Positions 21,945-50,721 of a stretch of DNA of 64,000 nucleotides are shown one piece after another (within the stretch, counting starts at the first letter, position 1; every line of letters starts with the position of its first letter). The position numbers were made by a program, and so were the translations under genes. The notes beneath the pieces were generated by a model that ran no database searches, was not told the origin of the DNA, and worked only from the letters and a program-made list of their open reading frames with translations. The DNA lies in contig CAZRVD010000002.1 of NCBI GenBank assembly GCA_964603545.1, positions 46,854 to 110,853 of the forward strand, written 5' to 3'. The DNA is from an uncultured Candidatus Saccharibacteria bacterium (GTDB taxonomy: Bacteria > Patescibacteriota > Minisyncoccia > Phycocordibacterales > DATDWN01).

Positions 21945-24881
21945 ATGACTTCTGCTAATAAAATGATAAAAAAGGTTAGTAAAAAAAGTGTTTTAAAAAT
22001 ATTTTTGTTTTTTTTCGTTTTTATTTCTCTATTACTTGTTAAACCGGATGTAGTTTCTGCTGCGGTTGAAATCTACCCTGGACCGGGTGGTAATGCTTAC
22101 AAGTCAGACCTATATAATGTTGAAGTTTGGGATGGTTCTGCTTGGATTCCAGCTTATGTATATAAGCGAAGTAGAATAAGTACTATGCACTGGCATGTTG
22201 GAACAGTTACTAGTGTGAACTTTCTTACATTTGGTACAACTGGGCCAGTAAATGTAAGAATTAGCAAAGTAAGTGGTCCTATAACTTCAATAGCTGTTAG
22301 TCCAAAGAGTAAAAATATTCAAAACTCAATTAGTGGCGGGCTAGCAACTCTCACTCTAAATATAAACGATAAAACATGGATTACAATTGATGGGGATGAT
22401 GCTAATCCACTGTTTATTTTTGCTGATGCATTCAAACCAGCAGTTCCAGCACCTGGTGCGGGAGTAAAATATTTTGGACCCGGAGTTCAAGATATTTCAC
22501 CTGGAACAGGTAACCACTACTATCCCTCTGATAATGAAATCATTTACCTTGATGGAGGAGCTTGGGTTAGAGGAAACATAATCTTAACTGGCAAGAGTAA
22601 CGTCAAAATAATGGGTCCTGGAATATTATCTGGGGATCTTTGGGATTCGCAAACTATCCAAAACCTTGGATGGAATGGGATGCAAGATTATTTCATGATA
22701 TACGGGGGATCATATGGAACTTTAAATAGTAGCACCGTGAGTGGAATAACCTTGGTGGATTCTCCTGTTTTCAATATTTATAGTATGTCTAGCGCATATA
22801 GTGTGAAAATATTATCTCCATGGTATGCACAAACTGATGGATTCAGTGTGGTTGACGTAGATCAAGTTTTTATTTTCAACGGTGATACCACATTTAATCC
22901 ATATTTAAACTTTTGGTCACCAATAACAAATGGCTATACTGTTAATCTTCGAATAACAAATTCATTTGGAGGTACAGCAAATAATGCTGTTTTTCTAGGT
23001 GGTTTTTATGGAAATCCCCCAGGTGCAAATTTCACATCGCTTGTAGATAATGTTGATATTAAAACTTTTAATGACAACAGCTTTGTCCAATGGGGAGCAC
23101 CACATGAGCCAGCAGTATTTCAAATTTGGGTGGATAATGACAATAGTGGCTATGGTTATAGAAATCAAACATATCAAAACATTCGCATAGAAGGGAATGT
23201 TAATGCTCCTTTAATGCAGTTACAAAATAGAGTCTACCCATCTTATGCTTGGGGAGGTATATCCTATGATCCTCCACTGGGTAATACCGAGAATATTGTA
23301 TTTAAAAACATTACTTTGGAAGGAACACAATCAGATGTCAGTGGACAAAAAAGTGAAATTAAAGGTTGGGATGCTAATAATGGTTTTCGTAACATCATTT
23401 TGGAAAACTTCAGTATGGGTGGAACAGTTCTAAATCAATCTAATATAAGTAACTATATTGATGTAAATAGTTATGTTTGGGGGCTTGGTTTTTCACCGGC
23501 TCCAACAATAGATTCACTATCAGCAAATCCGACTACTATTGTTCAAGGGTCATCATCCACTCTTTCTTGGTCAACAACAAACGCATCTTCGTGTACAGGA
23601 AGCGGATCTTGGACTGGATCTAAGGGAATTTCTGGTAGCCAAACTGTTTTTCCAACAACAAATTCTACATACACATTAACCTGTACTAATTCTGGAGGAG
23701 GAACAGTAAGTAAATCAGTGAGTGTTAGCGTTGCACAAACGAGCCCAATTGGACTCTGGACTCTTGACCAAACTTCAGGCACTACTGCCTCAGACACATC
23801 TGGAAGTGGGTATAATGGCACCTTAATAAACTACACGGGTACTAGTTGGACTACAGGAAAGGTCTCTAATGGTTTGAATTTTGATGGAGTTGATGACCAA
23901 GTTAAAATTAGTGGAGCAACAACTCTGAATAAACTTACTGGTATGACACTATCAGCTTGGGTTAATCCTAGAAGCTCTGGTGGTAATGGTAGTGGTGCTG
24001 GAACAATTTTTACTAAAAGTGGTATCGTGGGTTCTTCTGCAAGATTCCGTATTTTAATGGGAAGTGATGGTTCTAGTATTCAACTTACAGCAAATTACAC
24101 TATTACTTCTGCTGGATGGAAAACACCCACAGGAAGTCTGCCTCTAAATTCTTGGCATCATGTTGTAGTTACTTACACACATGACAATGTAAATAGCATT
24201 CCTAAAATTTACATAGATGGTGTACTTCAGACACTGACCACACTGGGGACTGCATCAGGCGTTGGATTAAATGACGACGACATTCTATACATTGGTAGTA
24301 GAGGTACAAGTGCAACTGGAGTCTTTGATGGAGTTATTGATCAAGCGAGAATATACAACAGAGAATTAAGTTCTGGAGAAGTTACGACTTTGTACAATTC
24401 AGAGAGCTCTCCTCCTCCCATCGACTTCTCCCTTTCCTCTTCCCCATCAACCGTCAAAGTAATGCAAGCAAAGTCAGTTACTAACACTGTTACAGCTACA
24501 CTTGTAAGTGGAACATCTGGAGCGGTGTCATTTAGTGCTAGTGGATTGCCTACTGATGCTACTGCATCATTTTCTCCTACATCCTGTAGTCCAACCTGTA
24601 CTACAACCCTCACCATTGATTCTCTTTCTTCTACCCCAGTGGGTAATTCTACAATTACTGTTACTGGAACAGCTGGAACAGTCACTCGAACAAGTACTTT
24701 TACATTAGATATGAACTACAGGGGTGATATTAACAACGATGGGACTGTAAACTCCATAGACTGGTCCTTAATGAATTTCAAGTGGAACACAAGTGATGTT
24801 TCGACTGACTTAAATAGTGATGGTAATGTAAACTCTGTAGACTTCTCCCTACTTAACGCTAATTGGTTTAAAAGTGGGTAA
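21945..24881 (+). CDS. Large secreted multidomain protein: beta-helix-like region + Ig-like + ConA/LamG-like lectin domain + C-terminal type I dockerin
   Basis: 978 aa with signal/TM. LamG-like LNFDGVDDQVKISG...LSAWVNPRS. C-terminal duplicated Ca-loop repeats DINNDGTVNSIDWSLMN and DLNSDGNVNSVDFSLLN. Confidence 0.75.
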   Translation: MTSANKMIKKVSKKSVLKIFLFFFVFISLLLVKPDVVSAAVEIYPGPGGNAYKSDLYNVEVWDGSAWIPAYVYKRSRISTMHWHVGTVTSVNFLTFGTTGPVNVRISKVSGPITSIAVSPKSKNIQNSISGGLATLTLNINDKTWITIDGDDANPLFIFADAFKPAVPAPGAGVKYFGPGVQDISPGTGNHYYPSDNEIIYLDGGAWVRGNIILTGKSNVKIMGPGILSGDLWDSQTIQNLGWNGMQDYFMIYGGSYGTLNSSTVSGITLVDSPVFNIYSMSSAYSVKILSPWYAQTDGFSVVDVDQVFIFNGDTTFNPYLNFWSPITNGYTVNLRITNSFGGTANNAVFLGGFYGNPPGANFTSLVDNVDIKTFNDNSFVQWGAPHEPAVFQIWVDNDNSGYGYRNQTYQNIRIEGNVNAPLMQLQNRVYPSYAWGGISYDPPLGNTENIVFKNITLEGTQSDVSGQKSEIKGWDANNGFRNIILENFSMGGTVLNQSNISNYIDVNSYVWGLGFSPAPTIDSLSANPTTIVQGSSSTLSWSTTNASSCTGSGSWTGSKGISGSQTVFPTTNSTYTLTCTNSGGGTVSKSVSVSVAQTSPIGLWTLDQTSGTTASDTSGSGYNGTLINYTGTSWTTGKVSNGLNFDGVDDQVKISGATTLNKLTGMTLSAWVNPRSSGGNGSGAGTIFTKSGIVGSSARFRILMGSDGSSIQLTANYTITSAGWKTPTGSLPLNSWHHVVVTYTHDNVNSIPKIYIDGVLQTLTTLGTASGVGLNDDDILYIGSRGTSATGVFDGVIDQARIYNRELSSGEVTTLYNSESSPPPIDFSLSSSPSTVKVMQAKSVTNTVTATLVSGTSGAVSFSASGLPTDATASFSPTSCSPTCTTTLTIDSLSSTPVGNSTITVTGTAGTVTRTSTFTLDMNYRGDINNDGTVNSIDWSLMNFKWNTSDVSTDLNSDGNVNSVDFSLLNANWFKSG

Positions 24882-24948
24882 ATGGTGAGACAGATGATTG
24901 TTACTATGTTATTATTTATTCAATAATAATTAATTTTTTATTAAAAAC

Positions 24949-25599
24949 ATGGATTACATACATAATAAAATCTCTGAAAACGTTAATTGGTATCGAAAGT
25001 GGCATGACATGGATGGCCCAGATTTAATCCACTGGCTCTTGTTCATTTTAGTTGCAGTACTTGCTTGGTCTTCTATAAATGGACAGGTCTATTTGTGGTT
25101 AAATGAAATTAGTGAACAGGAAATTGTAGTTAAGCTACCAAATAGTAATGCCACTCTTTCCCTAGACCCACAAACAAGCACAGTAAGAGTTGGTGATGTG
25201 TTTACTGTTAACGTTATTTTAAATACAAATGAAGGGTCTGTAGATGGTGTAGATATATATGGTCTACATTATGACCCAAGCATACTGGAGGTTATAGACG
25301 ACATATCAAAACAAAAAGGTGTGCAAATAGAACCTGGCAAAATCTTGCCAAACAACGCCGTAAACAGCGTAAACCCATCCACTGGTACAATAAAATTAGG
25401 TCAACTTTCATACGGTGGTGAAAAATTCACAGGCAGAGGCACACTAGCCACAATTCATTTCAAGGCCGTCGGTGTCGGAAGCTCATTTTTGAAATTTGAT
25501 TTTGAAAAAGGAAGCACAATAGACACAAACGCTGCGTACAAAGGTAGAGACAAATTAGCAAAGGTTGTGGATGCAATTTATACAGTTACAGAAAAATAA
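24949..25599 (+). CDS. Membrane-anchored cohesin-domain protein
   Basis: 216 aa. TM LIHWLLFILVAVLAW, then a cohesin-like beta-sandwich signature VGDVFTVNVILNT...VDGVDIYGLHYDPSILEV...GTLATIHFKAVGVGSS. Confidence 0.65.
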   Translation: MDYIHNKISENVNWYRKWHDMDGPDLIHWLLFILVAVLAWSSINGQVYLWLNEISEQEIVVKLPNSNATLSLDPQTSTVRVGDVFTVNVILNTNEGSVDGVDIYGLHYDPSILEVIDDISKQKGVQIEPGKILPNNAVNSVNPSTGTIKLGQLSYGGEKFTGRGTLATIHFKAVGVGSSFLKFDFEKGSTIDTNAAYKGRDKLAKVVDAIYTVTEK

Positions 25600-25602
25600 C
25601 AT

Positions 25603-27189
25603 ATGAAAAAATATCTAAAAATTACTGCCCTTTCTATATTTGTAATGACGGGCTTAGTCCTTGGTCTATCAAGCAAAAATGTTACGGAAGCAGCAACCAC
25701 AGCTACATTAAGTTTGTCCCCCACATCTTCTAGTATTATTTTAAATCAAAACTTTACAGTTAATATTCTACTGGACACTGTTGGTAATGCCACTGACGGT
25801 GTTGATGTTTTTTCACTCCACTTCAATCCAGCAATTCTACAAGTTGTAGACAGTAACGCATCTGTGGCTGGGGTGCAGATTGCTCCTGGATCTCTTATGC
25901 CAGCAACCACAGCAAATGTTGCAGATAACACAGCTGGAACAATACAATTCTCCCAAGCATCATCTGGAGGTAGTAATTTCACTGGAAGTGGAATTTTGGC
26001 CACAATCACTTTTAGAGCCAACGCTGTTGGCTCTAGCGCGGTTACTATGGACTTTACTCCAGGAAACACAGCTGATACTAATGTAGCTTTCCAAGGAACT
26101 GATCTTTTGCTTTCCGTTACTAATGGTACTTATACGGTTGTTAATCCTTTTGATTTCTCCGTAACTACAACAGGTGGTCCCAAATCTGTAACTCAAGGAT
26201 CATCTGTAACTCAAGCTGTTAGCTCAACTCTTATATCTGGTACAGCGGCGTCTGTGACATTTTCAGCGTCAGGACTACCAACTGGAGCTACAGCTTCTTT
26301 TTCACCCGCCTTATGTACTCCTACTTGTACAACAACAATGACTATTACTACTACAGGTTCTACACCAGTAGGAACTTCTAATGTAGTAGTTACGGGAACA
26401 TCAGGAGCAACAGTTCGAAACGCTACAGCTTTCGTTTTGACGGTGAACGCGGTGCCTCTAGATTTCTCCGTAACTACAACAGGTGGTCCCAAATCTGTAA
26501 CTCAAGGATCATCTGTAACTCAAGCTGTTAGCTCAACTCTTATATCTGGTACAGCGGCGTCTGTGACATTTTCAGCGTCAGGACTACCAACTGGAGCTAC
26601 AGCTTCTTTTTCACCCGCCTTATGTACTCCTACTTGTACAACAACAATGACTATTACTACTACAGGTTCTACACCAGTAGGAACTTCTAATGTAGTAGTT
26701 ACGGGAACATCAGGAGCAACAGTTCGAAACGCTACAGCTTTCGTTTTGACGGTGAACTTAGCTAATTATAATCGTACAATCCAAATAGACCCGGAAGGTA
26801 TTTCAAACAAAATACTATCTGGGACACTCGATGTTTTAAACCCCTCAAAAGTTTCGATCAAGACTTATCCATTTACCACAAACTCATCTGGACAAGCTAC
26901 AATTTCATTTGATATTTCTCCTCAAGTTGTGTATTTGAAACTTAACCCCACACCATTCCTTGCAAGACTGATTAGTTTAGATTTAAACACAAATACTACA
27001 TACGTATTTCCAAAACTTCTAACTGGAGATCTTAATAATGACAACTTAATTAACTCTGTAGATTACTCTGTGTTAAATGGAAACTGGTTTACCTCTAACG
27101 CCACGTCAGACCTAAACAAAGATGGTTTGGTTAACTCTATAGACTTCTCATTTATGAATCAACACTGGTTAGTAAATGGTGATGCGTAA
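25603..27189 (+). CDS. Secreted cohesin + 2x Ig-like repeat + C-terminal dockerin protein (adaptor scaffoldin-like)
   Basis: 528 aa. Signal peptide, cohesin-like TDGVDVFSLHFNPAILQV, two identical 103-aa repeats, and dockerin DLNNDNLINSVDYSVLN...DLNKDGLVNSIDFSFMN. Confidence 0.7.
   Translation: MKKYLKITALSIFVMTGLVLGLSSKNVTEAATTATLSLSPTSSSIILNQNFTVNILLDTVGNATDGVDVFSLHFNPAILQVVDSNASVAGVQIAPGSLMPATTANVADNTAGTIQFSQASSGGSNFTGSGILATITFRANAVGSSAVTMDFTPGNTADTNVAFQGTDLLLSVTNGTYTVVNPFDFSVTTTGGPKSVTQGSSVTQAVSSTLISGTAASVTFSASGLPTGATASFSPALCTPTCTTTMTITTTGSTPVGTSNVVVTGTSGATVRNATAFVLTVNAVPLDFSVTTTGGPKSVTQGSSVTQAVSSTLISGTAASVTFSASGLPTGATASFSPALCTPTCTTTMTITTTGSTPVGTSNVVVTGTSGATVRNATAFVLTVNLANYNRTIQIDPEGISNKILSGTLDVLNPSKVSIKTYPFTTNSSGQATISFDISPQVVYLKLNPTPFLARLISLDLNTNTTYVFPKLLTGDLNNDNLINSVDYSVLNGNWFTSNATSDLNKDGLVNSIDFSFMNQHWLVNGDA
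26152..26769 (+). repeat. Perfect tandem duplication (2 x 309 bp) inside the cohesin-dockerin gene
   Basis: 26152-26448 and 26461-26757 are identical by direct comparison (GATTTCTCCGTAACTACAACAGGTGGTCCC...TTGACGGTGAAC). Each encodes one Ig-like module. Confidence 0.85.
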
Positions 27190-27203
27190 TTAAATAAAAA
27201 TAA

Positions 27204-28469
27204 ATGAAAAAATTCTTCATAGTAATAATCTTAGTTATTGGTTTTTCAATTTTTGCCCCACAGGCTTCAGCTGCCACCTTAATTCTATCTCCCTCTTCGG
27301 GAAATGTTACTGCTGGTCAGACTATTACTGTCGATATAATGCTTGATACTAAAAATGCAGATATTGATGGTGTTGATGTTTATTCTCTACACTACAATCC
27401 AGCTATTTTAGAGGTAGTAGACAGTAGTTCATCTGCTTCTGGAATACAAATAACCCCAGGAAGTTTGTTCCCTATCACCTTAACTAACAAAGTTACAAGT
27501 GGTGTGGTTCAATTTTCTCAAGTAACAAGTGGAGGAACCTCCTACAAGGGTGCTGGCAAACTAGCTACTATTACATTTAAAGGATTATCAAACGGAACTT
27601 CTGCGGTCACTTTTGATTTTACACCAGGAAGCACTTCAGATACTAACGTAGCGGGAGGAGGTAAGGATGAATTAACAAGTGTGGGTAGTGGTAGTTATAC
27701 GGTAACCGGCGGAGGTGTTACCCCGCCCCCACCACCACCAGTTGATACTACAGCACCAGTTATATCTGCAATTAGTTCTTCGGGGATTAAATCAAGTAGT
27801 GTAAATATTGTGTGGACAACAGATGAATCTTCTGACACGGTAGTTGAGTATGGTCTCACTACATCATATGGATCTCTGAGTACAAACTCTTCTCTACTAA
27901 CTCTTCACTCAAGGTCATTAGTTAATCTAAAATCAAACACTCTTTACCACTTCCGAGTAAAATCAAAAGATGCTGCAGGAAACCTGGCTGTCTCTACTGA
28001 TAAAACATTCACTACTCTGGCTGGTTCCTCCACTCCTCCTCCACCACCAACTCCTACCCCGACACCTACACCTGGTCCAGGTCCAGCTCCTAGACCAACA
28101 CCTACACCGTCTCCAACATCTAGTGGTACTGGCCCTAGACTCTCTTCAATATACGCCTTAGAGATTTCTGATAGTTCCGCAATAATTTCATGGAAAACAG
28201 ACAGGCCATCTGATTCCAAAGTGGAATACGGCAAAACAGATAGCTATGAATCAAGTACGGAAGTTAATTCATCTTTTGTCACTTCACACTCATTTAATTT
28301 ATCAAACCTTTCATCGGGCACAACATACCACTACCGTGTAAGATCAATTGATGAATCAGGTAATTTAACTTTTTCTGGCGACAGAACTTTTACAACAATT
28401 AATGTTATTGAAAATGACATGAACTTCTTTGAAAGAATTTGGGATTGGTTTATCTCTCTATTTGTTTAG
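27204..28469 (+). CDS. Secreted cohesin + Pro-rich linkers + 2x fibronectin-III-like domains, C-terminal hydrophobic tail
   Basis: 421 aa. Cohesin-like IDGVDVYSLHYNPAILEV. Linkers PPPPPP and PTPTPTPTPGPGPAPRPTPTPSP. Two FN3-like modules (SS..I.W.TDE.SD..VEYG). Tail FERIWDWFISLFV. Confidence 0.7.
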   Translation: MKKFFIVIILVIGFSIFAPQASAATLILSPSSGNVTAGQTITVDIMLDTKNADIDGVDVYSLHYNPAILEVVDSSSSASGIQITPGSLFPITLTNKVTSGVVQFSQVTSGGTSYKGAGKLATITFKGLSNGTSAVTFDFTPGSTSDTNVAGGGKDELTSVGSGSYTVTGGGVTPPPPPPVDTTAPVISAISSSGIKSSSVNIVWTTDESSDTVVEYGLTTSYGSLSTNSSLLTLHSRSLVNLKSNTLYHFRVKSKDAAGNLAVSTDKTFTTLAGSSTPPPPPTPTPTPTPGPGPAPRPTPTPSPTSSGTGPRLSSIYALEISDSSAIISWKTDRPSDSKVEYGKTDSYESSTEVNSSFVTSHSFNLSNLSSGTTYHYRVRSIDESGNLTFSGDRTFTTINVIENDMNFFERIWDWFISLFV

Positions 28470-28470
28470 C

Positions 28471-28773
28471 CTACTGCTTTATACCTTCTGCTGAAATCTG
28501 GATTATCACATCAAAGCTGTCAGAAGTGACAGCTTTGTTCGTTTTAGAAAAGCCACATCTAATACATTTGTGAGTAATTATATATTCACTTCCCTTTTTG
28601 CTAACTCCTACTGGCTCCATCATACCCTCGCATTTCTCTGCCCTATCTCCAGGAAAAATATCCAAGTGTTTTGACCACAGACAATGTGGGCAATGATTTG
28701 TGTATCCATTCCCCTTCACTACTGTCCCACATTTCTCACAAACAAAATTTTCCTTATTTTTTATGAAAGTCAT
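28471..28773 (-). CDS. RNHCP-domain zinc-ribbon protein
   Basis: 100 aa. CEKCG...YTNHCPHCLWSKH...CIRCG matches the RNHCP signature. Confidence 0.7.
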   Translation of the reverse strand: MTFIKNKENFVCEKCGTVVKGNGYTNHCPHCLWSKHLDIFPGDRAEKCEGMMEPVGVSKKGSEYIITHKCIRCGFSKTNKAVTSDSFDVIIQISAEGIKQ

Positions 28774-29364
28774 TTATTTTTTAACAACTTCATCAAAATT
28801 AATTGTCCAATATTCCTCAGTATTTATTCCATAAATTTTCAAAAGCTGATTTGCTGAACAAATTTTTCTATCCTTTTCCTCTAAACTAAGTTCTCTCGCA
28901 ACATCATCTATATCTTTCCAGCTCTCAGCTTCTATTTCTAGATAAGTAGGTACCATGGCAATTGTATCTATATCAAACTCAATACTTCCTTTTTTCCACT
29001 TACTTCTTTTTTTCTGCGCCTCTCCGTGTTTTTCTATAAAACCAATCTTTTTAAGAAAAAGTTTTGTCTCTTCATATGAGTCAACCCTAATTTCTATCTC
29101 TTCCATCCCCTCATCATTTGTACTACCATCTTGTGAAGTTACCCCTAAACGCTTCTTAAAAGCTAGAACGATTTTATCCCCCTCATCGCGCAATCTTATC
29201 CAGCTATTGTCTTTATCCAATCGATAATCCGGATAATCAAAAGCAACATGACGAAGAAATACATCCCCCATTTTCTGTGCGCCAATATCCAAAAGTTTTT
29301 GTTCTAATTTTTCTTTATCTATATTCAAATATTTAACTTCAATTTCTTCTTTTGAATTAGTCAT
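28774..29364 (-). CDS. CYTH-domain protein (triphosphate tunnel metalloenzyme / CyaB-like)
   Basis: 196 aa. N-terminal EIEVKYL (the ExExK motif of CYTH) and a charged beta-barrel pattern. Abuts the RNHCP gene with no gap. Confidence 0.65.
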   Translation of the reverse strand: MTNSKEEIEVKYLNIDKEKLEQKLLDIGAQKMGDVFLRHVAFDYPDYRLDKDNSWIRLRDEGDKIVLAFKKRLGVTSQDGSTNDEGMEEIEIRVDSYEETKLFLKKIGFIEKHGEAQKKRSKWKKGSIEFDIDTIAMVPTYLEIEAESWKDIDDVARELSLEEKDRKICSANQLLKIYGINTEEYWTINFDEVVKK

Positions 29365-29915
29365 TAAAATTCATTAATTAGCTCTGGCAAACTTATAAAA
29401 CCATCATCTTCCGTAATGTGCCCAGCATTATGCAATACTACAATTTTTGAACCAATTTCCAAAAACTTATTTTTATTTTCTTCAAAAAACCCGTATGGAT
29501 CGTTATCAGAAATTATTAAGGTAGATTTAGGAAGAACTCTTTTAACCTTTTCTAAATCTATCGGAGTTTTTATCCAAGGTTTAGCGATTTCTCTTATCTC
29601 TTCGTCCTCAAGATTATTCAGGTTAAACCATCCTGAAACAAAAACTGCCCCACCCACTATACTATTTGTCTTTTCTAAATACCTCAAAATTGCTTGGCAC
29701 CCGATACTGTGTCCAACAAAATATGTTTGAGAGTCAGATAAACCAACCACTTCTATAAGTTTATTTACCCATTTATCAATATTCGGCACCTCTGTGTCAG
29801 GCATTTCCGGTACAATTACTTGATACCCCCTCTTTTCGAGCTCTACTTTTAACCATGGTCGCCAATCATCATTTGAACCGCCAGACCATCTGTGAATAAC
29901 AAATACCCGTTTCAT
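29364..29915 (-). CDS. Alpha/beta hydrolase, RBBP9/YdeN-like serine hydrolase
   Basis: 183 aa. Nucleophile elbow GHSIG and a C-terminal HNAGH motif. Overlaps the CYTH gene start by 1 nt. Confidence 0.7.
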   Translation of the reverse strand: MKRVFVIHRWSGGSNDDWRPWLKVELEKRGYQVIVPEMPDTEVPNIDKWVNKLIEVVGLSDSQTYFVGHSIGCQAILRYLEKTNSIVGGAVFVSGWFNLNNLEDEEIREIAKPWIKTPIDLEKVKRVLPKSTLIISDNDPYGFFEENKNKFLEIGSKIVVLHNAGHITEDDGFISLPELINEF

Positions 29916-29918
29916 TTG

Positions 29919-29991
29919 TCGGGGTGCCGGGATTCGAACCCGGAGTCGCTTGTTCCCAAAACAAGAATGTTAGCCGTTACACTACACCCCG
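29919..29991 (-). tRNA. tRNA-Pro (anticodon UGG)
   Basis: Minus strand reads CGGGGTG-TA-GTGT-AACGGCTA-ACAT-T-CTTGT-TTTGGGA-ACAAG-CGACT-CCGGG-TTCGAAT-CCCGG-CACCCCG-A. Confidence 0.9.
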
Positions 29992-30049
29992 AAAATACAT
30001 AAATACAAAATGAAGTCTAACACAAAAATACTAATTCACAAATAAATGG

Positions 30050-30610
30050 CTATAGGACAAGGTCTTCAAGTAAAAAGACCTGCGATGATTGTGTGTTTGG
30101 ATCAAGATGAACAGTTACAACATCAAACTGCCAATCAACATTATCTGGGACATTTCTGTCTAGTAAATATGACTGCACTGCCCTACTTAGCCTCTGTAGT
30201 TTCCAAGGATGCATATTATCCTCTGGACGGTAATCGTCCTGGTGGCGCATTTCTTTGTTGGAATAAGAAATGTTCTCGTCATCGTAATTTTTTACGTCTC
30301 CTCGCCTATTCCTTATTCCGCCTCGAACTGCATCCATCAGGCCGTTTACCCAGCCCTTATTGGTTTCACGAGTAACATTACTTAAGTCTCTTGAAACACT
30401 TTTAACCTCTACAAAGTGAAGCTTATTCCCTTTCTTCACAACAATATCTATCTCTCCCCATTTCTTTAGGTAATTACGTTCAATTACTTTATAGCCAAGT
30501 CCTGTTAAGTACTTACAAGCATCATCCTCCCCTATCTGGCCAATTTTCTGTTTATCCGTAGGCTCTTTTGAGAAATTCTTGTTATACATATCTAAAATAT
30601 ACTCCGACAT
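30050..30610 (-). CDS. YraN-family (UPF0102) predicted endonuclease with ~65-aa internal insertion
   Basis: IGQIGEDDACKYLTGLGYKVIERNYLKKWGEIDIVVKKGNKLHFVEVK is the YraN core. At 186 aa it is longer than typical, with a GC-richer insert in the middle. Confidence 0.7.
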   Translation of the reverse strand: MSEYILDMYNKNFSKEPTDKQKIGQIGEDDACKYLTGLGYKVIERNYLKKWGEIDIVVKKGNKLHFVEVKSVSRDLSNVTRETNKGWVNGLMDAVRGGIRNRRGDVKNYDDENISYSNKEMRHQDDYRPEDNMHPWKLQRLSRAVQSYLLDRNVPDNVDWQFDVVTVHLDPNTQSSQVFLLEDLVL

Positions 30611-30628
30611 TTTAAAAAGTAAATCACA

Positions 30629-30710
30629 GTTACATCTGTAATGGCAATTTGTCTTGGAAATGTTACATATGTAACACGCTGTCTTATTGTAGGTAGTTAC
30701 ACATGTAACT
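30629..30710. promoter_or_regulatory. Three GTTACA-N2-TGTAAC palindromic operator-like sites at ~33-bp spacing upstream of the yraN-like gene
   Basis: AGTTACATCTGTAAT (30629-43), TGTTACATATGTAACA (30661-76, a perfect 16-bp palindrome) and AGTTACACATGTAACT (30695-710). Confidence 0.55.
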
Positions 30711-30971
30711 ATCTATATCATTTCACGTGAAACATATTATATAAATGATCAAAAACAGACACCTAATGGCCATGTCTGATTAAAAATAACCATACTTTAA
30801 GCCATATATTACCAATGGACATAATAAAGTCCCTAAACTTGACCAAAGTCAAAGACTTGTCTTTAATACACATGTCCCCAGACTTATCCACATTTTAACC
30901 ATAATTATGTCTGATAAATTTTACCCTTTTATTTTTTATGGCTTTGTTATATGATGATATTTGTTAAGTTA

Positions 30972-31042
30972 GCGGGTATGGTTTAATGGTAGAACACGTC
31001 CTTGCCAAGGACGAGATCCGGGTTCGATTCCCGGTACCCGCA
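30972..31042 (+). tRNA. tRNA-Gly (anticodon GCC)
   Basis: GCGGGTA-TG-GTTT-AATGGTA-GAAC-A-CGTCC-TTGCCAA-GGACG-AGAT-CCGGG-TTCGATT-CCCGG-TACCCGC-A. Confidence 0.9.
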
Positions 31043-31070
31043 CAAATTTTAACGCAGTGAAATCACTTTG

Positions 31071-31142
31071 TGCTCCCGGCAGGAATCGAACCCACATCCA
31101 CGGTTCCGAAGACCGGTACTCTATCCGTTGAGCTACGGGAGC
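31071..31142 (-). tRNA. tRNA-Arg (anticodon UCG; one C-U mismatch at 27-43)
   Basis: Minus strand reads GCTCCCG-TA-GCTC-AACGGATA-GAGT-A-CCGGT-CTTCGGA-ACCGT-GGAT-GTGGG-TTCGATT-CCTGC-CGGGAGC-A. Its overall similarity is to enterobacterial tRNA-Arg. Confidence 0.7.
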
Positions 31143-31217
31143 AAACTAACAAACTCATAATACAGATAAAAATTGGTTGTGTCCATGTTAAACATTGAAT
31201 GATATAATAAAACCAAC

Positions 31218-32681
31218 ATGAATTTATCTATTCCAAGTGAGGTTTCATATGTAACAAACAAACTCGAAGAGGGAGGCTTTGAGGCTTTTTTGGTTGGTGG
31301 GTGTGTAAGGGATCTAGTACTAAACAAGACTCCAAAAGACTGGGATGTCACGACAAATGCCACCCCAGACCAGATTATAGCCTTATTTACCAAGACATTT
31401 TATGAAAATGAGTTTGGAACAGTAGGAGTAGTAAACGAGGAGACAGAAGATGAAAGTTTAAAGGTAATAGAGGTAACCCCATATAGACTAGAGGGGAACT
31501 ACTCTGACAACAGGCACCCAGATAGCGTTACTTTTAGCCAAAAAATAGAGGACGATTTGAAAAGAAGAGACTTCACAATGAACTCACTGGCATATTCTGT
31601 ATCTAAAAAAGAAATAATTGACCTTTACGGTGGAGAAAAAGATATAAAGGACAAAATTATTAGAACAGTCGGGGAACCAGCAGATCGTTTCAAGGAAGAC
31701 GGACTTAGAATACTAAGAGCTGTGCGTCTTAGCACAGAATTAGAGTTTGAAATAGAGCGTAAAACTGAAAAAGCTATACTTGAAAACCAAAACCTGCTCC
31801 AAAACATATCAAAGGAGAGAATAAGAGATGAGTTTACAAAGATAATTATGTCAAATAAACCGATGGATGGACTTTTGGCTATGAAAAAGCTTGGACTTTT
31901 AGTCTCTGTAGTACCTGAATTAGAGGAAACTATTGGAATAGAGCAAGGGGGAATACACACCTTTGATGTATGGGAACACTTGCTTCGCTCACTACAGCAT
32001 TCCTCAGACAAAAAATACCCTTTAGAAATAAGGCTTTCTGCGCTTTTTCATGATATTTCCAAACCAGAGTCTCGAAGAGGAGGAAAGAATAAACAATGGA
32101 CTTTTTACGGTCATGAAGTGCTTGGAGCAAGAAAAACTAAAAGAATTCTTACAAACTTAAAATACTCAACGAAAATTATTGAAAAAGTTGTTTCAATGAT
32201 CAGATGGCATATGTTTTTTTCTGACACAGAGCAAATTAGCCTCTCAGCGGTCCGTAGAATGATCGTAAATGTTGGACGAGAGAATATATGGGATCTCATG
32301 AATCTACGCATATGCGACCGTATAGGAACTGGTAGACCTAAAGAAGACCCTTACCGTCTCCGAAAATATCACGCAATGATAGAAGAAGCACTTCGAGACC
32401 CTATTTCTGTTGGAATGCTTAAGATTGATGGTAAAAAAATAATGGAAATTACAAAAATAACTCCTGGACCTAAGGTTGGTTTCACGTTACACGCACTTTT
32501 AGAAGAAGTTTTGGATGATCCTACAAAAAATACGGAAGAATACCTTGAAAACAGAGCAAAAGAGCTTATTTTGCTTCCTGAAAATGAATTAAAAGCCTTA
32601 GGGGAAGAAGGAAAAATGTCAAAAGAGGAAGCAGATGAGATGGAAATAAAGAAAATCCGCTCTACTCACCGCGTCAAATAA
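31218..32681 (+). CDS. cca: CCA-adding tRNA nucleotidyltransferase with HD domain
   Basis: 487 aa. Pol-beta-type NTase motif GGCVRD...DWD, a tRNA-NT head, and a C-terminal HD region (HD...H). Confidence 0.85.
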   Translation: MNLSIPSEVSYVTNKLEEGGFEAFLVGGCVRDLVLNKTPKDWDVTTNATPDQIIALFTKTFYENEFGTVGVVNEETEDESLKVIEVTPYRLEGNYSDNRHPDSVTFSQKIEDDLKRRDFTMNSLAYSVSKKEIIDLYGGEKDIKDKIIRTVGEPADRFKEDGLRILRAVRLSTELEFEIERKTEKAILENQNLLQNISKERIRDEFTKIIMSNKPMDGLLAMKKLGLLVSVVPELEETIGIEQGGIHTFDVWEHLLRSLQHSSDKKYPLEIRLSALFHDISKPESRRGGKNKQWTFYGHEVLGARKTKRILTNLKYSTKIIEKVVSMIRWHMFFSDTEQISLSAVRRMIVNVGRENIWDLMNLRICDRIGTGRPKEDPYRLRKYHAMIEEALRDPISVGMLKIDGKKIMEITKITPGPKVGFTLHALLEEVLDDPTKNTEEYLENRAKELILLPENELKALGEEGKMSKEEADEMEIKKIRSTHRVK

Positions 32682-32704
32682 AAATTCCAAATTTTAATAT
32701 AAAA

Positions 32705-32763
32705 AACCGCCCAATGATCAAGGTCCATGGGGGAGTGTCATGGGCACTAATCATTGAGCGGTT
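32705..32763 (+). terminator. Long interrupted hairpin after cca (possible terminator or structured RNA)
   Basis: AACCGC-CCAATGATC-AAG-GTCCATG-[GGGGAGTGT]-CATGGGC-AC-TAATCATTG-A-GCGGTT, then TTGG. Further hairpins GGGAGTCGGCCGACTCCC (32888-32905) and GTCCTTTA-TAAGATACTG-TAAAGGAC (32993-33018). Confidence 0.4.
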
Positions 32764-33061
32764 TGGAGAGAAGACCCACACAGCATCCGTGAAGCTAGAT
32801 GTTGTAACTGAACTCCAAAAATATAAGTAGATAGCGAGGGTTCGTTTACACCTATTTCTTGATAAGAAACCAAGTGGTCTTCTGAGGGGAGTCGGCCGAC
32901 TCCCAAAATGGGTCGCACGACGAAGAACAAATTGCAAATGTCGTGTTCAGGGTTTATTGGACACTCTAATTGCGGTTCCTTAATTAGTGTATGTCCTTTA
33001 TAAGATACTGTAAAGGACATAAGCCAGAAAATTGTGGATAACTTAGATTAAGTTTCGATTT

Positions 33062-33856
33062 CTAGAGGGTAATATCAATAGAAATAGGGCAGTGGTCGGA
33101 GCCAAGGACATCGGGATGAATGCGTGCTTGTTTTACTTTTTCTTTTAGTTTTTTACTTACAAAAATGTAATCGATTCTCCAACCAATATTTCTTTCTCTG
33201 GCATTTGCAAAATGACTCCACCAAGTGTAAAAACCGTTTCCTTTTGAAAAAAGTCTGAATGTATCGATGAAACCTACGTCAATAAAATTTTGTATACCCT
33301 CACGTTCTTCCGAAGTAAAACCTTTTTTACCAACATTTTCTTTTGGTCTAGCTAGATCGTCTTCCGTGTGTGCAACATTTAAATCTCCACAGAAAATAAC
33401 TGGTTTTTTCTTCTCAAGTTTTTGAGCATACTCAAGAAATGCCTTATCCCAACCCTTGTGTCGTAGGGGAATACGAGAAAGGTCATCTTTCGCATTAGGA
33501 GTATAAACAGTTATCAGATAGAAAACTGAAAACTCAGCAACAATTACTCTTCCTTCTGTATTTGGATCACCATATTTATCTTCAAGTTTGTATTTTTTTA
33601 AAATATCTTCTGGAAAATCTAGTTGAACTGATATGGGTTTTTCTTTGGTAAAAATAGCAGTACCGCTATAACCCTTCTTCTTTGCCGAGTTCCAATACTC
33701 TTCATAGTCTGGTAAATCTACCTCGCTTTGGTGCTGTTCTGCCTTTGTTTCCTGTAAACACAAAATATCCGGCTTGTATTTTTCTATAAAAGGCACAAGC
33801 AGTCCCTTTTTATGCACTGCTCGTATACCGTTTACATTCCAAGAGATTATTTTCAT
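33062..33856 (-). CDS. xth: Exodeoxyribonuclease III
   Basis: 264 aa. ISWNVNGIRA...LCLQETK...SDHCPI are ExoIII/APE signatures. Confidence 0.9.
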   Translation of the reverse strand: MKIISWNVNGIRAVHKKGLLVPFIEKYKPDILCLQETKAEQHQSEVDLPDYEEYWNSAKKKGYSGTAIFTKEKPISVQLDFPEDILKKYKLEDKYGDPNTEGRVIVAEFSVFYLITVYTPNAKDDLSRIPLRHKGWDKAFLEYAQKLEKKKPVIFCGDLNVAHTEDDLARPKENVGKKGFTSEEREGIQNFIDVGFIDTFRLFSKGNGFYTWWSHFANARERNIGWRIDYIFVSKKLKEKVKQARIHPDVLGSDHCPISIDITL

Positions 33857-33878
33857 ACTGAATTATATTAACATTCCA

Positions 33879-34820
33879 CTATCTATTATGAAACTTTTTA
33901 TGAATATCCCTCAGATGTTTATCTGTTACGTGTGTGTATATTTGAGTAGTAATGATACTTGAATGACCTAAAAGAGCTTGCACGGAACGAAGATCTGCAC
34001 CGTTGGAGAGTAGATCGGTAGCAAAAAGGTGTCGCATTGTATGAGGAGTAACTTTTTTGGAAATACCCGCTTTTGTAGCGTGTTTTTTAATTATTCTTTC
34101 AATTGACCTGTTTGTTAGAGGTTTAGCCTCTTTTGTTGCGATTTTCCCATCATTTGATTTTTTATTTTTAGATTCTTTGGCTATTTGAACAAAAAGAGCA
34201 TCGCTCATATCCTTACGAGCCGAAAGGTAAGCCCTGACACTTTTTTTTGCTTCATCTGAAATAAAAACCACGCGAACTTTACCTCCTTTTCCTCGAATAG
34301 AAAGTTCATCTGTACTTAAATCTATGTCTGAAGTTAGAGAACAAAGTTCAGAAACACGCAGTCCTGTAGAAAATAGGAGTTCTAGTACAGCCTTATCTCT
34401 CAAGTCTCTTAAGTCATTGCCATCTGGAGACTGTAACAGACGAGTTAGTTCTGCATGGGTAATAAGGTCAAGAGAACGCTCTCCGACTTTGGCCAATTCT
34501 ATACGTTCTGCTGATAAAGACTTTATTTCTTGCCTTGCTAGATATTTTAAAAATGCCCTTAGAGCAATTAGATAATAATTTTGGGTCTTTTTTGAAAGTG
34601 TTTCGGTTTTTATTTTACTCTGGCCAGTTAGTTGCCTGTTAAGCCACAAACGAAACTCACGAACTGAGTCTCCGGTAATTTTAGCGGGGTCGTCATTTTT
34701 GGAATAATCTAAAAATCGAGTCAAATAATGGTCATAATTCTCAACTGTTTTCAGGGATCGACCTCTTTCTATCTCAATATATTCCAGAAACTGCTGTTTT
34801 AGTTGTTTTAGGGAAGCCAT
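33879..34820 (-). CDS. Tyrosine site-specific recombinase XerC/XerD-like
   Basis: 313 aa. C-terminal catalytic motifs HTMRHLFATDLL...LLGHSSIITTQIYTHV. Confidence 0.85.
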   Translation of the reverse strand: MASLKQLKQQFLEYIEIERGRSLKTVENYDHYLTRFLDYSKNDDPAKITGDSVREFRLWLNRQLTGQSKIKTETLSKKTQNYYLIALRAFLKYLARQEIKSLSAERIELAKVGERSLDLITHAELTRLLQSPDGNDLRDLRDKAVLELLFSTGLRVSELCSLTSDIDLSTDELSIRGKGGKVRVVFISDEAKKSVRAYLSARKDMSDALFVQIAKESKNKKSNDGKIATKEAKPLTNRSIERIIKKHATKAGISKKVTPHTMRHLFATDLLSNGADLRSVQALLGHSSIITTQIYTHVTDKHLRDIHKKFHNR

Positions 34821-34910
34821 TTAAACAAAATTATAACATAGTATGTCGCACAATATCGAACACTGGAACCCCTTGCAAATGGCTGTCTTTTGTGATATCC
34901 TGTTGGGACA

Positions 34911-35180
34911 ATGCTTACAAAGACAAAGAAATCAAAAATCGTCAAAGAGGTACAAGTACACGCAACTGACACTGGTTCTCCAGAGGTTCAGATCGCTATT
35001 TTGACTAAAAGGATTGACGAATTAGCAAGCCACCTTAAGAAAAATGCAAAAGATAATCACTCTCGAAGAGGATTACTACAAATGGTTGCAAGTCGAAAGA
35101 CTCACATGAAGTATCTAGAGAAAAAGAATCCAAAGAGATTCAACGCCCTAAACAAGAAACTAGGTTTGAAGAGCAAGTAA
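34911..35180 (+). CDS. rpsO: 30S ribosomal protein S15
   Basis: 89 aa. The motif DNHSRRGLLQMVASRK is typical of S15. Confidence 0.9.
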   Translation: MLTKTKKSKIVKEVQVHATDTGSPEVQIAILTKRIDELASHLKKNAKDNHSRRGLLQMVASRKTHMKYLEKKNPKRFNALNKKLGLKSK

Positions 35181-35395
35181 AATAAACCCATCTGCGTTGT
35201 TGTGTTTCAATTTTGCTCGTTCACCGTACTAGATGTACGACTCACTCACAAAATCTCACACGCCTAGCACCTGGGCTTATTTTCCTCACTCTTAGAAACT
35301 TATCTCCTTCAATTTTTGGTTTTGAATATACTAGTAAGCATTGTGATACAATTAAGGAAGGTCGAATTTTAATAATTTAGAAATAATTTTTACAT

Positions 35396-35950
35396 ATGTC
35401 AGTTATAAAACACAAAGATCAACGAGTTGGTATTTTTATCGATACACAGAACCTATACCATTCAGCAAAAAACATTTACAACACTAGAGTAAACTTTGAC
35501 CAGGTGGTTAAAGACGGTCTAGCGGGAAGACAACTTATTCGTGCGGTAGCTTATGTTATCACTACAGAAGCAGGGGATGAGAAAAACTTTTTCGAAGCTC
35601 TGGGAAAAATGGGGATTGAAACAAAAACAAAAAACCTTCAGATTTTTTCTGGAGGAGCTAAAAAGGCAGACTGGGATGTCGGGCTTGCGGTAGATGCCAT
35701 AAAACTTGCCCCAAAACTAGATGCAATAATTTTAGTCACGGGAGATGGAGATTTCGTACCACTAGTAGAATACCTTCAAGTAAACGAAGGTTGCCAAGTA
35801 GAAGTAATGTCCTTTGGTAAATCTTCCTCAAGTAGACTAATAGAAGTCTGTGATGATTTTATTGATCTCGATCTACACCCAGAAAAATATCTCCTAGGTT
35901 TCGGTGGGGGCAAAAGAAATCGCAGAGTACCAAGAACCATTCCGAAATAG
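35396..35950 (+). CDS. NYN/LabA-like domain protein (PIN-like nuclease fold)
   Basis: 184 aa. RVGIFIDTQNLYHS...ILVTGDGDFVPLV matches LabA/NYN (DUF88). Confidence 0.7.
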   Translation: MSVIKHKDQRVGIFIDTQNLYHSAKNIYNTRVNFDQVVKDGLAGRQLIRAVAYVITTEAGDEKNFFEALGKMGIETKTKNLQIFSGGAKKADWDVGLAVDAIKLAPKLDAIILVTGDGDFVPLVEYLQVNEGCQVEVMSFGKSSSSRLIEVCDDFIDLDLHPEKYLLGFGGGKRNRRVPRTIPK

Positions 35951-35969
35951 TTTTTAAATCAAGGGGATT

Positions 35970-36884
35970 TTGTTACAATGTGTAAGAATGAATCCTGAAG
36001 AAAATTTAAAAAATAATACGGAGAAAAGTAAACCGGAAGAAAGAGTGCCTATTAAATCCCTACGAACTTATCAGGGGGATGTGCAAGAAGCCATAGAAAA
36101 AAACAAATATTCCTCAACAACAATTCTAGTTTCTGAGCAAAAAAGAAAACTAGAAAGTCCCATTGATCCAGAGAAAGCAAATCAAATTAATAAAAACAGA
36201 AATAAAACTTTTGTTCTGTTGGGTGTAGCTTTTATAGTGCTAGGTTTAGTTTCCATCTCAACTCTTTATTACATCAAATCAAACGAAAAAGTTAATATAG
36301 AAAAACAAACAAAAAGCATAATAACTTTTTCTGAAGAAAGAACCGTAGAGACAACAAACCAGACCAAGGAAGATTTTATAAATAAAATATTGGAAGATAA
36401 AAGTAGTTGGAATATGGCGGTTAATTCTGTCCTATATTTAAATATACTGTCAGAAACAACGGAAGCAAGAATTGAAAATGTTTTATCTCTCTTATCACCA
36501 AATATGCCGCCGTCTTTAGTAAGATCTTTTGGAGAGAAATATATGTTCGGAGTTTATTCTTTTGATACAAACGAGCCGTTTATAATTTTAAATGTTAATG
36601 ATTTTTCACTAGCTTATCCAGGAATGCTGAAATGGGAAAAAGATATGGTAACAGACTTGGGAGGTTTGTTCGGCGTAATTGATAGTGGGAACGCTAGCAC
36701 AAGTGTTCCTGTATTTACAGATGAAACTATAAAAAACAAGGACATTAGAATAGCCAAGGATTCTTCAGGAAATCCTCTCTTCCTTTACTCTTTTGTGGAC
36801 AGAAAAACACTAATAATTACCAAAAATCAAAACATCTTGTCAGCTCTGGTTGATAAATTAATCATAAACAAGCAGGTAAGATAG
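35970..36884 (+). CDS. Hypothetical membrane protein
   Basis: 304 aa with a single TM (TFVLLGVAFIVLGLVSISTLYYI). No recognisable domain. Confidence 0.45.
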   Translation: MLQCVRMNPEENLKNNTEKSKPEERVPIKSLRTYQGDVQEAIEKNKYSSTTILVSEQKRKLESPIDPEKANQINKNRNKTFVLLGVAFIVLGLVSISTLYYIKSNEKVNIEKQTKSIITFSEERTVETTNQTKEDFINKILEDKSSWNMAVNSVLYLNILSETTEARIENVLSLLSPNMPPSLVRSFGEKYMFGVYSFDTNEPFIILNVNDFSLAYPGMLKWEKDMVTDLGGLFGVIDSGNASTSVPVFTDETIKNKDIRIAKDSSGNPLFLYSFVDRKTLIITKNQNILSALVDKLIINKQVR

Positions 36885-36922
36885 ACGATTGCATATAAGA
36901 CCATTTTTGCTACAATGGACTT

Positions 36923-37279
36923 ATGACAATAGACACAAACTACTTCAAAAGTTTACTTGCGAAAGAAGCTTCTGACCTGGAAAGCCAGTTGGCGAATTTA
37001 GGTAGAAAAAATCCAGACCGCGCTGGAGACTGGGAAACTATTAGAAAGGCAAATGGATTAGACAAGGCAGATGACTTAGAAGTTGCAGATGGAATTGAAG
37101 AGTTTGAAAACAACAACGCGGTGTTGGGACAACTAGAATTAAAATTAGTGGATGTTAAAGAAGCCTTGGCTAAAATAGAAGCAGGAACGTATGGAAATTG
37201 TGGTGTTTGTGGGAAGGAAATAGAAGAGGACAGACTAGAAGCGAACCCTTCCGCTAAAACTTGCAAATTACATATGTAA
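36923..37279 (+). CDS. DksA/TraR-family C4 zinc-finger protein
   Basis: 118 aa. Coiled-coil N-terminus plus C-terminal CGVCGKEI...CKLH. Confidence 0.7.
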   Translation: MTIDTNYFKSLLAKEASDLESQLANLGRKNPDRAGDWETIRKANGLDKADDLEVADGIEEFENNNAVLGQLELKLVDVKEALAKIEAGTYGNCGVCGKEIEEDRLEANPSAKTCKLHM

Positions 37280-37298
37280 GGGTTAGAGTACCTGCCAT

Positions 37299-38846: not shown

Positions 38847-38918
38847 AAATTTAAAATCTGAGTGAATCCGAAATGAAAATGCTGAGTATTTCTGAGAATT
38901 TTTGTTCGAGTTGTAATA

Positions 38919-39040
38919 AAACTTTCACAATTTGTGCTAAATCCGATGTGAGAAATTAAAAATGTGAGAAGCCTTATTAGACATAAGGTGACGAGTATTT
39001 TTAATTTTGGAACGAGGAGTTAGCCAAATTTGAAAATTTT
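38919..39040 (-). repeat. Post-stop structured repeat, copy B (begins at stop of M23 peptidase gene)
   Basis: Sense strand reads TAA-AATTTTCAAATTTGGCTAACTCCTCGTTCCAAAATTAAAAATACTCGTCACC-[CCTTAT GTCTA ATAAGG]-CTTCTCACATTTTTAATTTCTCACATCGGATTTAGCACAAATTGTGAAAGTTT. Confidence 0.85.
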
Positions 39041-40136: not shown

Positions 40137-40314
40137 AATAAGCTAAAATTTAATTTAAATTCAGAACTCCTGTATTATTATATGGCTTAACAAAGCCATA
40201 TAATTCGGCAACATTTCCGTACTAATTTATTATATATCCTGCAAAGACCTGGTCAATAGAGGTTATGAACAGGTCACAAATCTAGGTTTTTAACAAATGC
40301 TATAATCAGACCCA

Positions 40315-45585: not shown

Positions 45586-45674
45586 TTTTCAACATAATTC
45601 CTAGTTTTACAAAGCTTTCTTTAATATAATAGTATACAATTAGTGTGTAGATTTGTTTTTCTAATACATTCCTT

Positions 45675-47330: not shown

Positions 47331-47352
47331 TAAACGTTGAAGACAAAAAGAA

Positions 47353-49356: not shown

Positions 49357-49360
49357 AACC

Positions 49361-50260: not shown

Positions 50261-50283
50261 ATAAAATGCTTTAAAATTTAACA

Positions 50284-50721
50284 ATGCGTTACCAAATACC
50301 ACAATTTATTGATGTAGAAGACAAAATCATTGGGCCCTTAACCCTAAAGCAATTCGTGTATCTTGCTGGTGGAGCTGGAATGGCTTTTGTTATTTATACT
50401 TATATACCTATATACATAGCTGTGATACTAATAGCTGTAGTGATACCGCTCTCTATTGCTCTAGCTTTTTATAAAATAAATAACAAACCATTCGTAGATT
50501 TTCTTGAATCTGCTTTCATGTTTTATACAAAACAAAACCTTTATATATGGAGAAAAGAGCAAAAGAAGATAGTAAAATCAGAAGCAGATGTGGCCAAAGA
50601 ATCTGCTCAAGTGTATGTACCAAGACTTTCCGATAGTAAACTGAAAGAATTGTCGTGGACCTTAGACATAAATGAAAATCTTAATCCATTAACCGGACAA
50701 AGTGGCAAAAATACAAAGTAA
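50284..50721 (+). CDS. Small two-TM membrane protein, PrgI/VirB3-like by context
   Basis: 145 aa with a hairpin TM pair (LAGGAGMAFVIYTYIPIYIAVILIAVVIPLSIALAFY), immediately upstream of the VirB4 pieces. Confidence 0.4.
   Translation: MRYQIPQFIDVEDKIIGPLTLKQFVYLAGGAGMAFVIYTYIPIYIAVILIAVVIPLSIALAFYKINNKPFVDFLESAFMFYTKQNLYIWRKEQKKIVKSEADVAKESAQVYVPRLSDSKLKELSWTLDINENLNPLTGQSGKNTK

Follow-up and report, generated by a model that had tools for sequence, protein, structure and literature searches.

A conserved cluster of parS-like palindromes at the yraN-tRNA-cca locus of CPR bacteria, a candidate centromere

What are the palindromes ahead of the yraN-like gene for, and which kind of protein would bind them? 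In the 64-kb window (the whole stretch of DNA analysed here) three GTTACAnnTGTAAC-type palindromes start at 30629, 30662 and 30696, upstream of a gene for a YraN-like nuclease. An earlier note on the same DNA had placed them in the stretch 30629-30710, about 33 bp apart and on the same face of the helix. It had read them as three operators of a cooperative repressor, resembling LexA boxes and, as a speculation, putting the nuclease gene under damage-inducible control. All three palindromes are present, including the perfect 16-mer at 30661-30676, and their start-to-start distances are 33 and 34 bp. The end given for the stretch, 30710, is one base off, the third core ending at 30709. The same-face geometry holds only roughly, as 33-34 bp corresponds to ∼3.2 helical turns and the 24 bp from A3 to the neighboring site B to ∼2.3 turns. 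Three further members of the same site family, at 30363, 30720 and 31242, had been missed (Table 1).

Table 1. Palindromic sites of the cluster and genes mentioned in the text, with their positions in the window (a dot marks features listed without a strand).
Feature	Position	Strand	Remarks
Degenerate site GTTTCACGAGTAAC	30363-30376	.	Inside yraN CDS; 1 mismatch to GTTWCANNTGWAAC
Site A1 GTTACATCTGTAAT (AGTTACATCTGTAATg)	30629-30642	.	1 mismatch to GTTACANNTGTAAC
Site A2 TGTTACATATGTAACA, perfect 16-bp palindrome	30661-30676	.	Exact core GTTACATATGTAAC at 30662-30675
Site A3 GTTACACATGTAAC (within aGTTACACATGTAACt)	core 30696-30709	.	Exact core
Site B CATTTCACGTGAAACA (cATTTCACGTGAAACA; core ATTTCACGTGAAAC at 30720-30733)	30719-30734	.	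Centre 24 bp from A3 centre
Site A4 GTTTCATATGTAAC	31242-31255	.	cca codons 9-13, peptide VSYVT; A-type/B-type half-site hybrid
yraN-like gene (UPF0102, PD-(D/E)XK nuclease)	30050-30610	-	Pfam E = 7e-18; hosts/flanks sites
tRNA-Gly(GCC)	30972-31043	+	Inside cluster; tRNA pair also in relatives' clusters
tRNA-Arg(TCG)	31070-31142	-	Inside cluster; tRNA pair also in relatives' clusters
cca (CCA-adding tRNA nucleotidyltransferase)	31218-32681	+	Pfam; 1 site here, up to 5-6 in relatives
comM	37299-38846		Window gene

Four places in the window match the GTTACAnnTGTAAC-type motif with at most one mismatch, against 0.21 expected from shuffles. These are A1, A2, A3 and A4, all within 630 bp, and none of 100 shuffles reached four matches. 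With the relaxed motif GTTWCAnnTGWAAC (GTTWCANNTGWAAC) there are eight matches (1.05 expected), six of which lie between 30363 and 31255, i.e., within 900 bp of the 64 kb. The other two are one-mismatch matches outside the cluster, at chance level. The palindromes are genuine, selected sites of the protein-binding type.

The window is part of a metagenomic contig from a bacterium of the candidate phyla radiation (CPR), and its closest named relatives are metagenome-assembled genomes of Zambryskibacteria and Nomurabacteria. A scan of species-representative genomes for two GTTACAnnTGTAAC-type sites close together returned more than 119 loci from many phyla. Three Parcubacteria loci among them (L057, L067 and L090) share the layout of the window, with yraN, one to three A-type sites and then a TTTCAnnTGAAA palindrome, and this last palindrome was not part of the pattern that had retrieved them. 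Scanning metagenomes for an A site followed after 4-30 nt by TTTCAnnTGAAA gave 117 stretches in 103 unique contexts, and the same module is thereby seen on more than 100 related CPR (Parcubacteria-type) contigs. The tie of the sites to the yraN-like gene, as proposed earlier, is borne out across very divergent relatives: 73 of the 103 unique module instances lie directly at the YraN N-terminus, with protein identities to the YraN of the window of 31-66%. Most of the remaining matches at yraN-type loci either adjoin yraN with the pair in reversed order or lie inside cca or yraN.

The number of sites was counted in 41 non-redundant loci with complete yraN and cca. Their yraN-tRNA-cca regions (2.5-3.4 kb each, 115 kb altogether) hold 4-8 sites per locus, with a median of 6 and a total of 260, whereas the flanking DNA of the same loci has 3 sites in 309 kb. 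How the sites are divided between yraN CDS, intergenic DNA and cca CDS varies from 0/0/6 to 5/2/0, the window having 1/4/1. In several lineages cca carries 4-5 sites at homologous positions (+0, about +210-300 and about +1330), and the farthest of these intragenic sites are 1.3 kb away from any start. In close relatives between one and three sites are intergenic, at spacings of 27-48 bp. Among neighboring sites a spacing of 24-25 bp is preferred (58 adjacent pairs), with lesser groups at 27, 33-38 and 45-48 bp. Of 53 lineages in which the yraN start could be located, 28 have a site whose end is 2-15 nt ahead of the start codon.

Conservation is accordingly seen at the level of the cluster: the total is kept, while positions turn over between intergenic and coding DNA. 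By this comparison of loci, three sites at 33-34 bp are a species-level detail. The proposed layout of three cooperative operators does not hold, as the three sites belong to a cluster of 4-8 extending across yraN and cca, coding sequence included, and neither the number nor the spacing of the intergenic sites is conserved.

The sites inside genes offer a view of what is being conserved. At the N-terminal position of cca an exact site is present in 25 of 42 relatives, and a site with ≤1 mismatch in 33 of 42. It is always in one frame, encoding V-[ST]-[RHYC]-V-T with the codons GTT-(A/T)CA-YRT-GTA-ACN, and the central residue is confined to R, H, Y and C, the amino acids with YRT codons. VTRVT is always written GTT ACA CGT GTA ACN. 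Its Arg codon is CGT in 12 of 12 cases, against 15% of the Arg codons in the window. The expected frequency of coding the cca site in this way is 0.8-2.7%, and that of the exact VTRVT coding about 0.8%. Judged from codon use, the sites in coding sequence are held by selection at the DNA level, and the peptide V-[ST]-[RHYC]-V-T would exist because the DNA has to read GTTWCAYRTGTAAC. The yraN-cca locus would then be a clear case of predicted binding sites written into protein-coding sequence.

Similar peptides are encoded elsewhere. The degenerate site of the window reads GTT ACT CGT GAA ACC on the gene strand (VTRET). The YraN-like protein has an insert of ∼60 residues (about 75-140) beyond the UPF0102 core, Pfam covering residues 27-74 only, and the VTRVT repeats that relatives have in this insert (two in L057, three in L216) are encoded by exact sites. 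In a Saccharibacteria genome (L047, 119-171) a gene for a RarA/MgsA-like ATPase has two perfect TGTTACACGTGTAACA at its 3' end, 39 bp apart, and the C-terminus of its product is NVTRVTK.

The gene next to the intergenic sites is yraN-like, as the earlier note had it (UPF0102, Table 1). The start it gave, 30610, is probably not the true one. YraN homologs begin MFGKKFSKEPTEKQ, and in an N-terminus comparison this aligns with MYNKNFSKEPTDKQ of the window (30587-30610), so the start is more likely the second ATG, at 30589. A promoter-like match, TTTACT-16-TATATT, runs from 30623 to 30596 ahead of yraN; a transcript from it would be leaderless and begin with the second ATG. Site A1 is the nearest to this putative promoter and lies 5 bp upstream of its -35-like TTTACT hexamer. 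Both dnaA and cca likewise have a TATAAT-like box 8-10 nt ahead of the ATG, which suggests leaderless mRNAs.

According to a recent report, YraN is the partner nuclease of ComM and resolves the D-loop of transformation (bioRxiv 10.1101/2024.02.06.579203). The gene order around it is kept across CPR contigs (28471-42255 in the window): an RNHCP-domain gene, yraN, tRNA-Gly, tRNA-Arg, cca, xth, xerC, rpsO, NYN, a membrane ORF, a DksA-type zinc finger, comM and uvrD. The region 21945-28469 encodes large surface proteins carrying cohesin, dockerin, Laminin_G and fibronectin-type domains. Further along, 44743-56829 holds genes resembling type IV secretion or conjugation genes (PrgI, a TraG/VirB4-like P-loop ATPase and T4SS pilin) together with unknown ORFs, and adjoins yidC-rnpA-dnaA. 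Among the ∼38 ORFs of the window examined with Pfam no candidate DNA-binding protein for the sites was found, and three unknown ORFs judged by eye are of membrane or secreted types.

The sequence of the sites themselves points to a known family. The half-site logo of 314 unique sites is T(62%)-G-T-T-W-C-A-Y(95%), and the resulting consensus TGTTWCAY (palindrome TGTTWCAY/RTGWAACA) matches parS (TGTTNCAC). The conserved chromosomal parS is TGTTNCACGTGAAACA (PMC7022226; PMC4368675). Site B, with 14 of 16 positions, is the only place in the 64 kb with ≤2 mismatches to the canonical parS TGTTTCACGTGAAACA. Against the parS consensus TGTTNCACGTGNAACA, A2 agrees at 14 of 16 positions, A3 and A4 at 13 and A1 at 11, A2 departing only in the centre, where it has TA instead of CG. 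In the standard in silico definition a parS site has ≤2 mismatches to TGTTNCACGTGNAACA, and within the window the 16-bp palindromes B and A2 come this close to parS.

The counterparts of B in relatives are closer still in some cases. The perfect parS 16-mer TGTTTCACGTGAAACA occurs in 15 of 102, and 70 of 102 have ≤2 mismatches. At the six positions of B that were not fixed by the search, 43-79% of the relatives agree with parS. By the standard definition (≤2 mismatches to TGTTNCACGTGNAACA) there are 340 unique sites within 3 kb of the clusters, against 7 elsewhere in 824 kb, 4 of these 7 being in non-CPR loci. Within the sequence examined the sites thus have the few copies and near absence elsewhere that are typical of parS. 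The centre of the A-type sites is CA/TG in 101, CG in 42 and TA in 22, so most are without the central CG; the CACGTG core is important for the affinity of ParB in Pseudomonas (PMC4368675). A-type, B-type and hybrid half-sites swap at the same homologous position across lineages, and the simplest reading of this interchange is one binder that ignores the base in question; parS, too, is degenerate there.

The location also resembles that of parS. The cluster of the window lies 27.5 kb from dnaA/dnaN, with dnaA at 58183 behind yidC-rnpA, and in a second lineage (L170) dnaA is 8.8 kb from the cluster, so that the cluster is origin-proximal in both lineages checked. The density of DnaA-box-like sequences is highest around dnaA. 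Upstream of the gene (58095-58125) are the DnaA-box-like repeats TTATTAACA, TTGTACACA and TTATTAACA in 11-bp steps, and the top box density of the window, at ∼59.2-59.8 kb (the 59500-59700 region), extends over the dnaA 3' end and the spacer between dnaA and dnaN. The repeats and the downstream boxes together suggest a bipartite oriC.

A non-coding block next to site B (30735-30895) is conserved in the aligned relatives (16 sequences with YraN 47-66% identical, 14 of them reaching the far end). It has a hairpin-like AAAAACAGACAy...CATGTC followed by TCAAAGACyTGTCyTTAATACACATGTCCmCAGAnTTATCCACAnTTT. Within it an invariant perfect DnaA box (30884-30892), 150 bp from B, is present in all 14 relatives that cover this point. 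The block could be a DnaA-controlled tRNA promoter or a DnaA titration site. The cluster itself was considered as oriC in view of this perfect box and rejected, since the box density peaks at dnaA instead.

On balance we lean toward the reading that the palindromes are part of an origin-proximal, centromere-like cluster of parS or parS-like sites for a ParB-type protein, where we infer both the identity of the binding protein and the function in segregation. ParB-family dimers would recognize each 16-bp TGTTWCAY/RTGWAACA palindrome through a helix-turn-helix. The ParB-type protein would load at the sites and build there a complex for partition and SMC loading, by which the origin region is marked for segregation, and several neighboring sites would raise the rate of loading. 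Such an effect of adjacent sites would explain why their number is conserved without their positions. A loading platform fits better than promoter operators, because the number of sites is kept while they turn over between intergenic and coding DNA, and because they occupy a single locus within the sequence examined. As one or two sites overlap or abut the start region of yraN in many lineages, the bound protein may in addition damp the gene, lowering its transcription as a side effect; from the site positions, such a repressive effect is plausible.

Several observations count against a centromere. Neither ParB nor ParA was found in the 64-kb window, in the ∼6 kb beyond its end (L241) or in ∼830 kb of related contigs, ParB having been searched with a GERRxRA regular expression and by tblastn with B. 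subtilis Spo0J. The Spo0J query sequence was 100% correct, and the ParB/ParA search covers ∼70 kb of this genome, roughly 10% of it. In a database search Spo0J matched Bacillus proteins only, which is uninformative for CPR bacteria. Most A-type sites are without the central CG. The spacing of 24-25 bp and the site 2-15 nt before the yraN start resemble a two-operator repressor arrangement, and BlaI/MecI/CopY operators have the very sequence of the A core, TTACAnnTGTAA. Both the centromere-type and the repressor-type facts would be accounted for by a ParB-family protein with a second role in silencing a neighboring promoter. We found no literature on parS, ParB or chromosome segregation sites in CPR/Patescibacteria.

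If the preference for a centromere is right, the 3-kb cluster of relaxed parS sites at yraN-tRNA-cca would be a concrete and widely conserved CPR centromere. It might be used to locate the origin in fragmented metagenome-assembled genomes, to search for the cognate ParB, and for segregation tests in CPR organisms that are now becoming genetically tractable.

A possible but doubtful alternative is an operator array for a dedicated repressor encoded elsewhere, of the BlaI/MecI/CopY winged-helix type or another dimeric helix-turn-helix type. The targets of this repressor would be the A/B pair, lying over the core promoter of yraN, and the site just inside cca, with the other intragenic sites serving as auxiliary looping operators. 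It would co-repress yraN and perhaps cca and the tRNAs. The A core is the TACA/TGTA operator of BlaI/MecI/CopY (PMC7253601). In Firmicutes and Planctomycetes GTTACAnnTGTAAC pairs 24-29 bp apart lie between a TTGACA -35 element and a BlaI-family (BlaI/MecI/CopY) repressor gene, which identifies the A-type core as the known operator of that family. The A-B pair of the CPR relatives has the same spacing (24-25 bp), and both its end just before the yraN ATG in 28 of 53 lineages and the 73 of 103 module instances at the YraN N-terminus agree with a repressor.

Several findings speak against it. The core TACAnnTGTA is necessary for binding by BlaI/MecI/CopY (PMC7253601), and it is present in the A-type sites and missing from B and the hybrids, which have TTCA for the essential TACA, yet occupy homologous positions. 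TTCA in one or both halves is found in 141 of 314 sites, including B and A4 of the window. Searches by tblastn with CopY and four proteins of the BlaI type detected no BlaI-family gene in the window, its extension or 830 kb of related loci, and no cognate repressor gene adjoins the sites there. Four to six sites lie deep in cca, up to 1.3 kb from any start, and site positions turn over while the total is kept. Relative to yraN the A-B pair can have either orientation; three or four loci with the flipped order have it ∼60-110 nt away from the start. Consensus promoter scans placed no promoter above chance over the pair in the two loci scanned (L177 and L161), and the 309 kb of flanking DNA offers no other targets.

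A dual use of the sites, combining the two functions, seems to us rather unlikely. Here a ParB-type sliding clamp or, if ParAB has been lost from the genome, a non-ParB substitute would load at 4-8 relaxed parS sites within the cca and yraN coding sequences, both marking the origin and silencing the yraN promoter. If true, recombination competence would be coupled to the state of replication and segregation in these ultra-small CPR bacteria.

We regard as improbable a centromere or organizing site bound by a non-ParB protein, in which ParAB would have been lost from the reduced genome and a new DNA-binding protein would recognize the parS-like sequence and load SMC or tether the origin region. 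The cluster-level evidence for it is the same as for ParB, ParA and ParB are absent from all sequence examined, and the relaxed central dinucleotide is unusual for a canonical ParB. Against this, the absence of ParAB covers only ∼70 kb of this genome, the parS agreement at 16 of 16 positions in 15 relatives most simply means ParB itself, and according to a review that does not cover CPR, par genes are lacking in only three bacterial families (PMC7022226).

The interpretation in the earlier note is as a whole partly supported, and its SOS part has no support. That the palindromes are LexA boxes giving damage-inducible control of a nuclease gene is an attractive idea that is corrected here; we consider it highly implausible, its only support being the palindromic TGTT-N8-AACA outline and the nuclease neighbor. 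LexA motifs are CTGT-N8-ACAG in the E. coli type and GAAC-N4-GTTC in the Gram-positive type, and TGTTWCAY/RTGWAACA matches the parS consensus and neither of these. Bacteroidetes LexA motifs are GGA-N5-TCC and CTAA-N5-TTAG (PMC8565304). There is no S24/LexA gene among the annotated genes of the window (Pfam), neither lexA nor recA being present in it. In the window uvrD, xth, comM, dnaA and dnaN have no site ahead of them, and instead of the dispersed pattern of a regulon there is a single cluster, partly inside coding sequences, with just the 3 sites in 309 kb of relatives' flanks.

Other explanations were rejected. For structured RNA, a search of the complete 64 kb with Rfam at the gathering threshold returned only tRNAs, and the region 30300-31400, searched with E values up to 1, gave the two tRNAs and weak matches overlapping them. 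A hairpin or terminator is disfavored by the palindromes, which extend past the core in only ∼21% of B and ∼13% of A sites. As a mobile element, 30560-30980 had no match by blastn in plasmid and phage collections. A dif/Xer site was rejected by reasoning only, from the 2-bp centre, which is incompatible with a tyrosine recombinase site, and the origin-proximal position; a DNA uptake sequence was rejected as the sites are not dispersed. In some lineages, for instance at L177 (9277-9302), L137 and L143, B lies in the middle of a much longer perfect palindrome (26-54 bp) that is terminator-like by scan, most lineages being without it.

The scan also returned arrays of another kind. Two rumen/gut Bacteroidaceae MAGs (RGIG3223 and Tb.RUG.104) have many arrays of 3-5 copies of GTGTTACAnnTGTAACA with a strict 23-bp period, and GTGTTACAnnTGTAACA arrays make up L012, L019, L035, L053, L058, L068, L070-L072, L076, L078, L080, L084, L097, L098, L102, L109, L111 and L119.

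Among the known systems compared with the cluster are the SOS boxes of LexA, which are likewise ∼16-bp A/T-rich palindromes upstream of a DNA-metabolism gene. Unlike these, the sites have another sequence and form a clustered, partly intragenic set at a single locus, with no lexA seen. The two-operator promoters of BlaI/MecI/CopY (TACAnnTGTA "cop box"; RNYKACANNTGTMRNY) have the identical A-type core TTACAnnTGTAA (PMC7253601) and two dyads ∼24-29 bp apart around the start region. They differ in that B-type and hybrid sites of the cluster break the TACA core, most sites are intragenic, count rather than position is conserved, and a BlaI-family gene is neither adjoining nor detectable.

The ParB-parS centromeres of B. 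subtilis (Spo0J/parS TGTTNCACGTGAAACA), M. xanthus and P. aeruginosa (four oriC-proximal parS) share with the cluster the 16-bp palindrome with the half-site TGTTNCA(C), one canonical copy per locus and several copies within a few kb, close to the origin (PMC7022226; PMC3899335; PMC4368675). Sites are tolerated in coding sequence, and are nearly absent elsewhere in the sequence examined. In Myxococcus xanthus 22 parS sites form a 3-kb cluster near the origin (PMC3899335). Unlike in these centromeres, the central CG of the cluster is relaxed to YR in most copies, neighboring sites prefer a spacing of 24-25 bp, and the cluster is anchored in yraN-tRNA-cca and not near parAB, with no parAB seen nearby.

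Promoter-silencing ParB systems have a partition-type site beside a promoter, as at yraN, where the site position suggests a similar effect. KorB-OB of plasmid RK2 is an example of a ParB-family protein that also silences promoters. In S. pneumoniae ParB spreads from parS onto comCDE and silences the promoter (PMC4488948). With the yraN product as a ComM-partner transformation nuclease, the CPR cluster would have a link to natural transformation, as in the pneumococcus.
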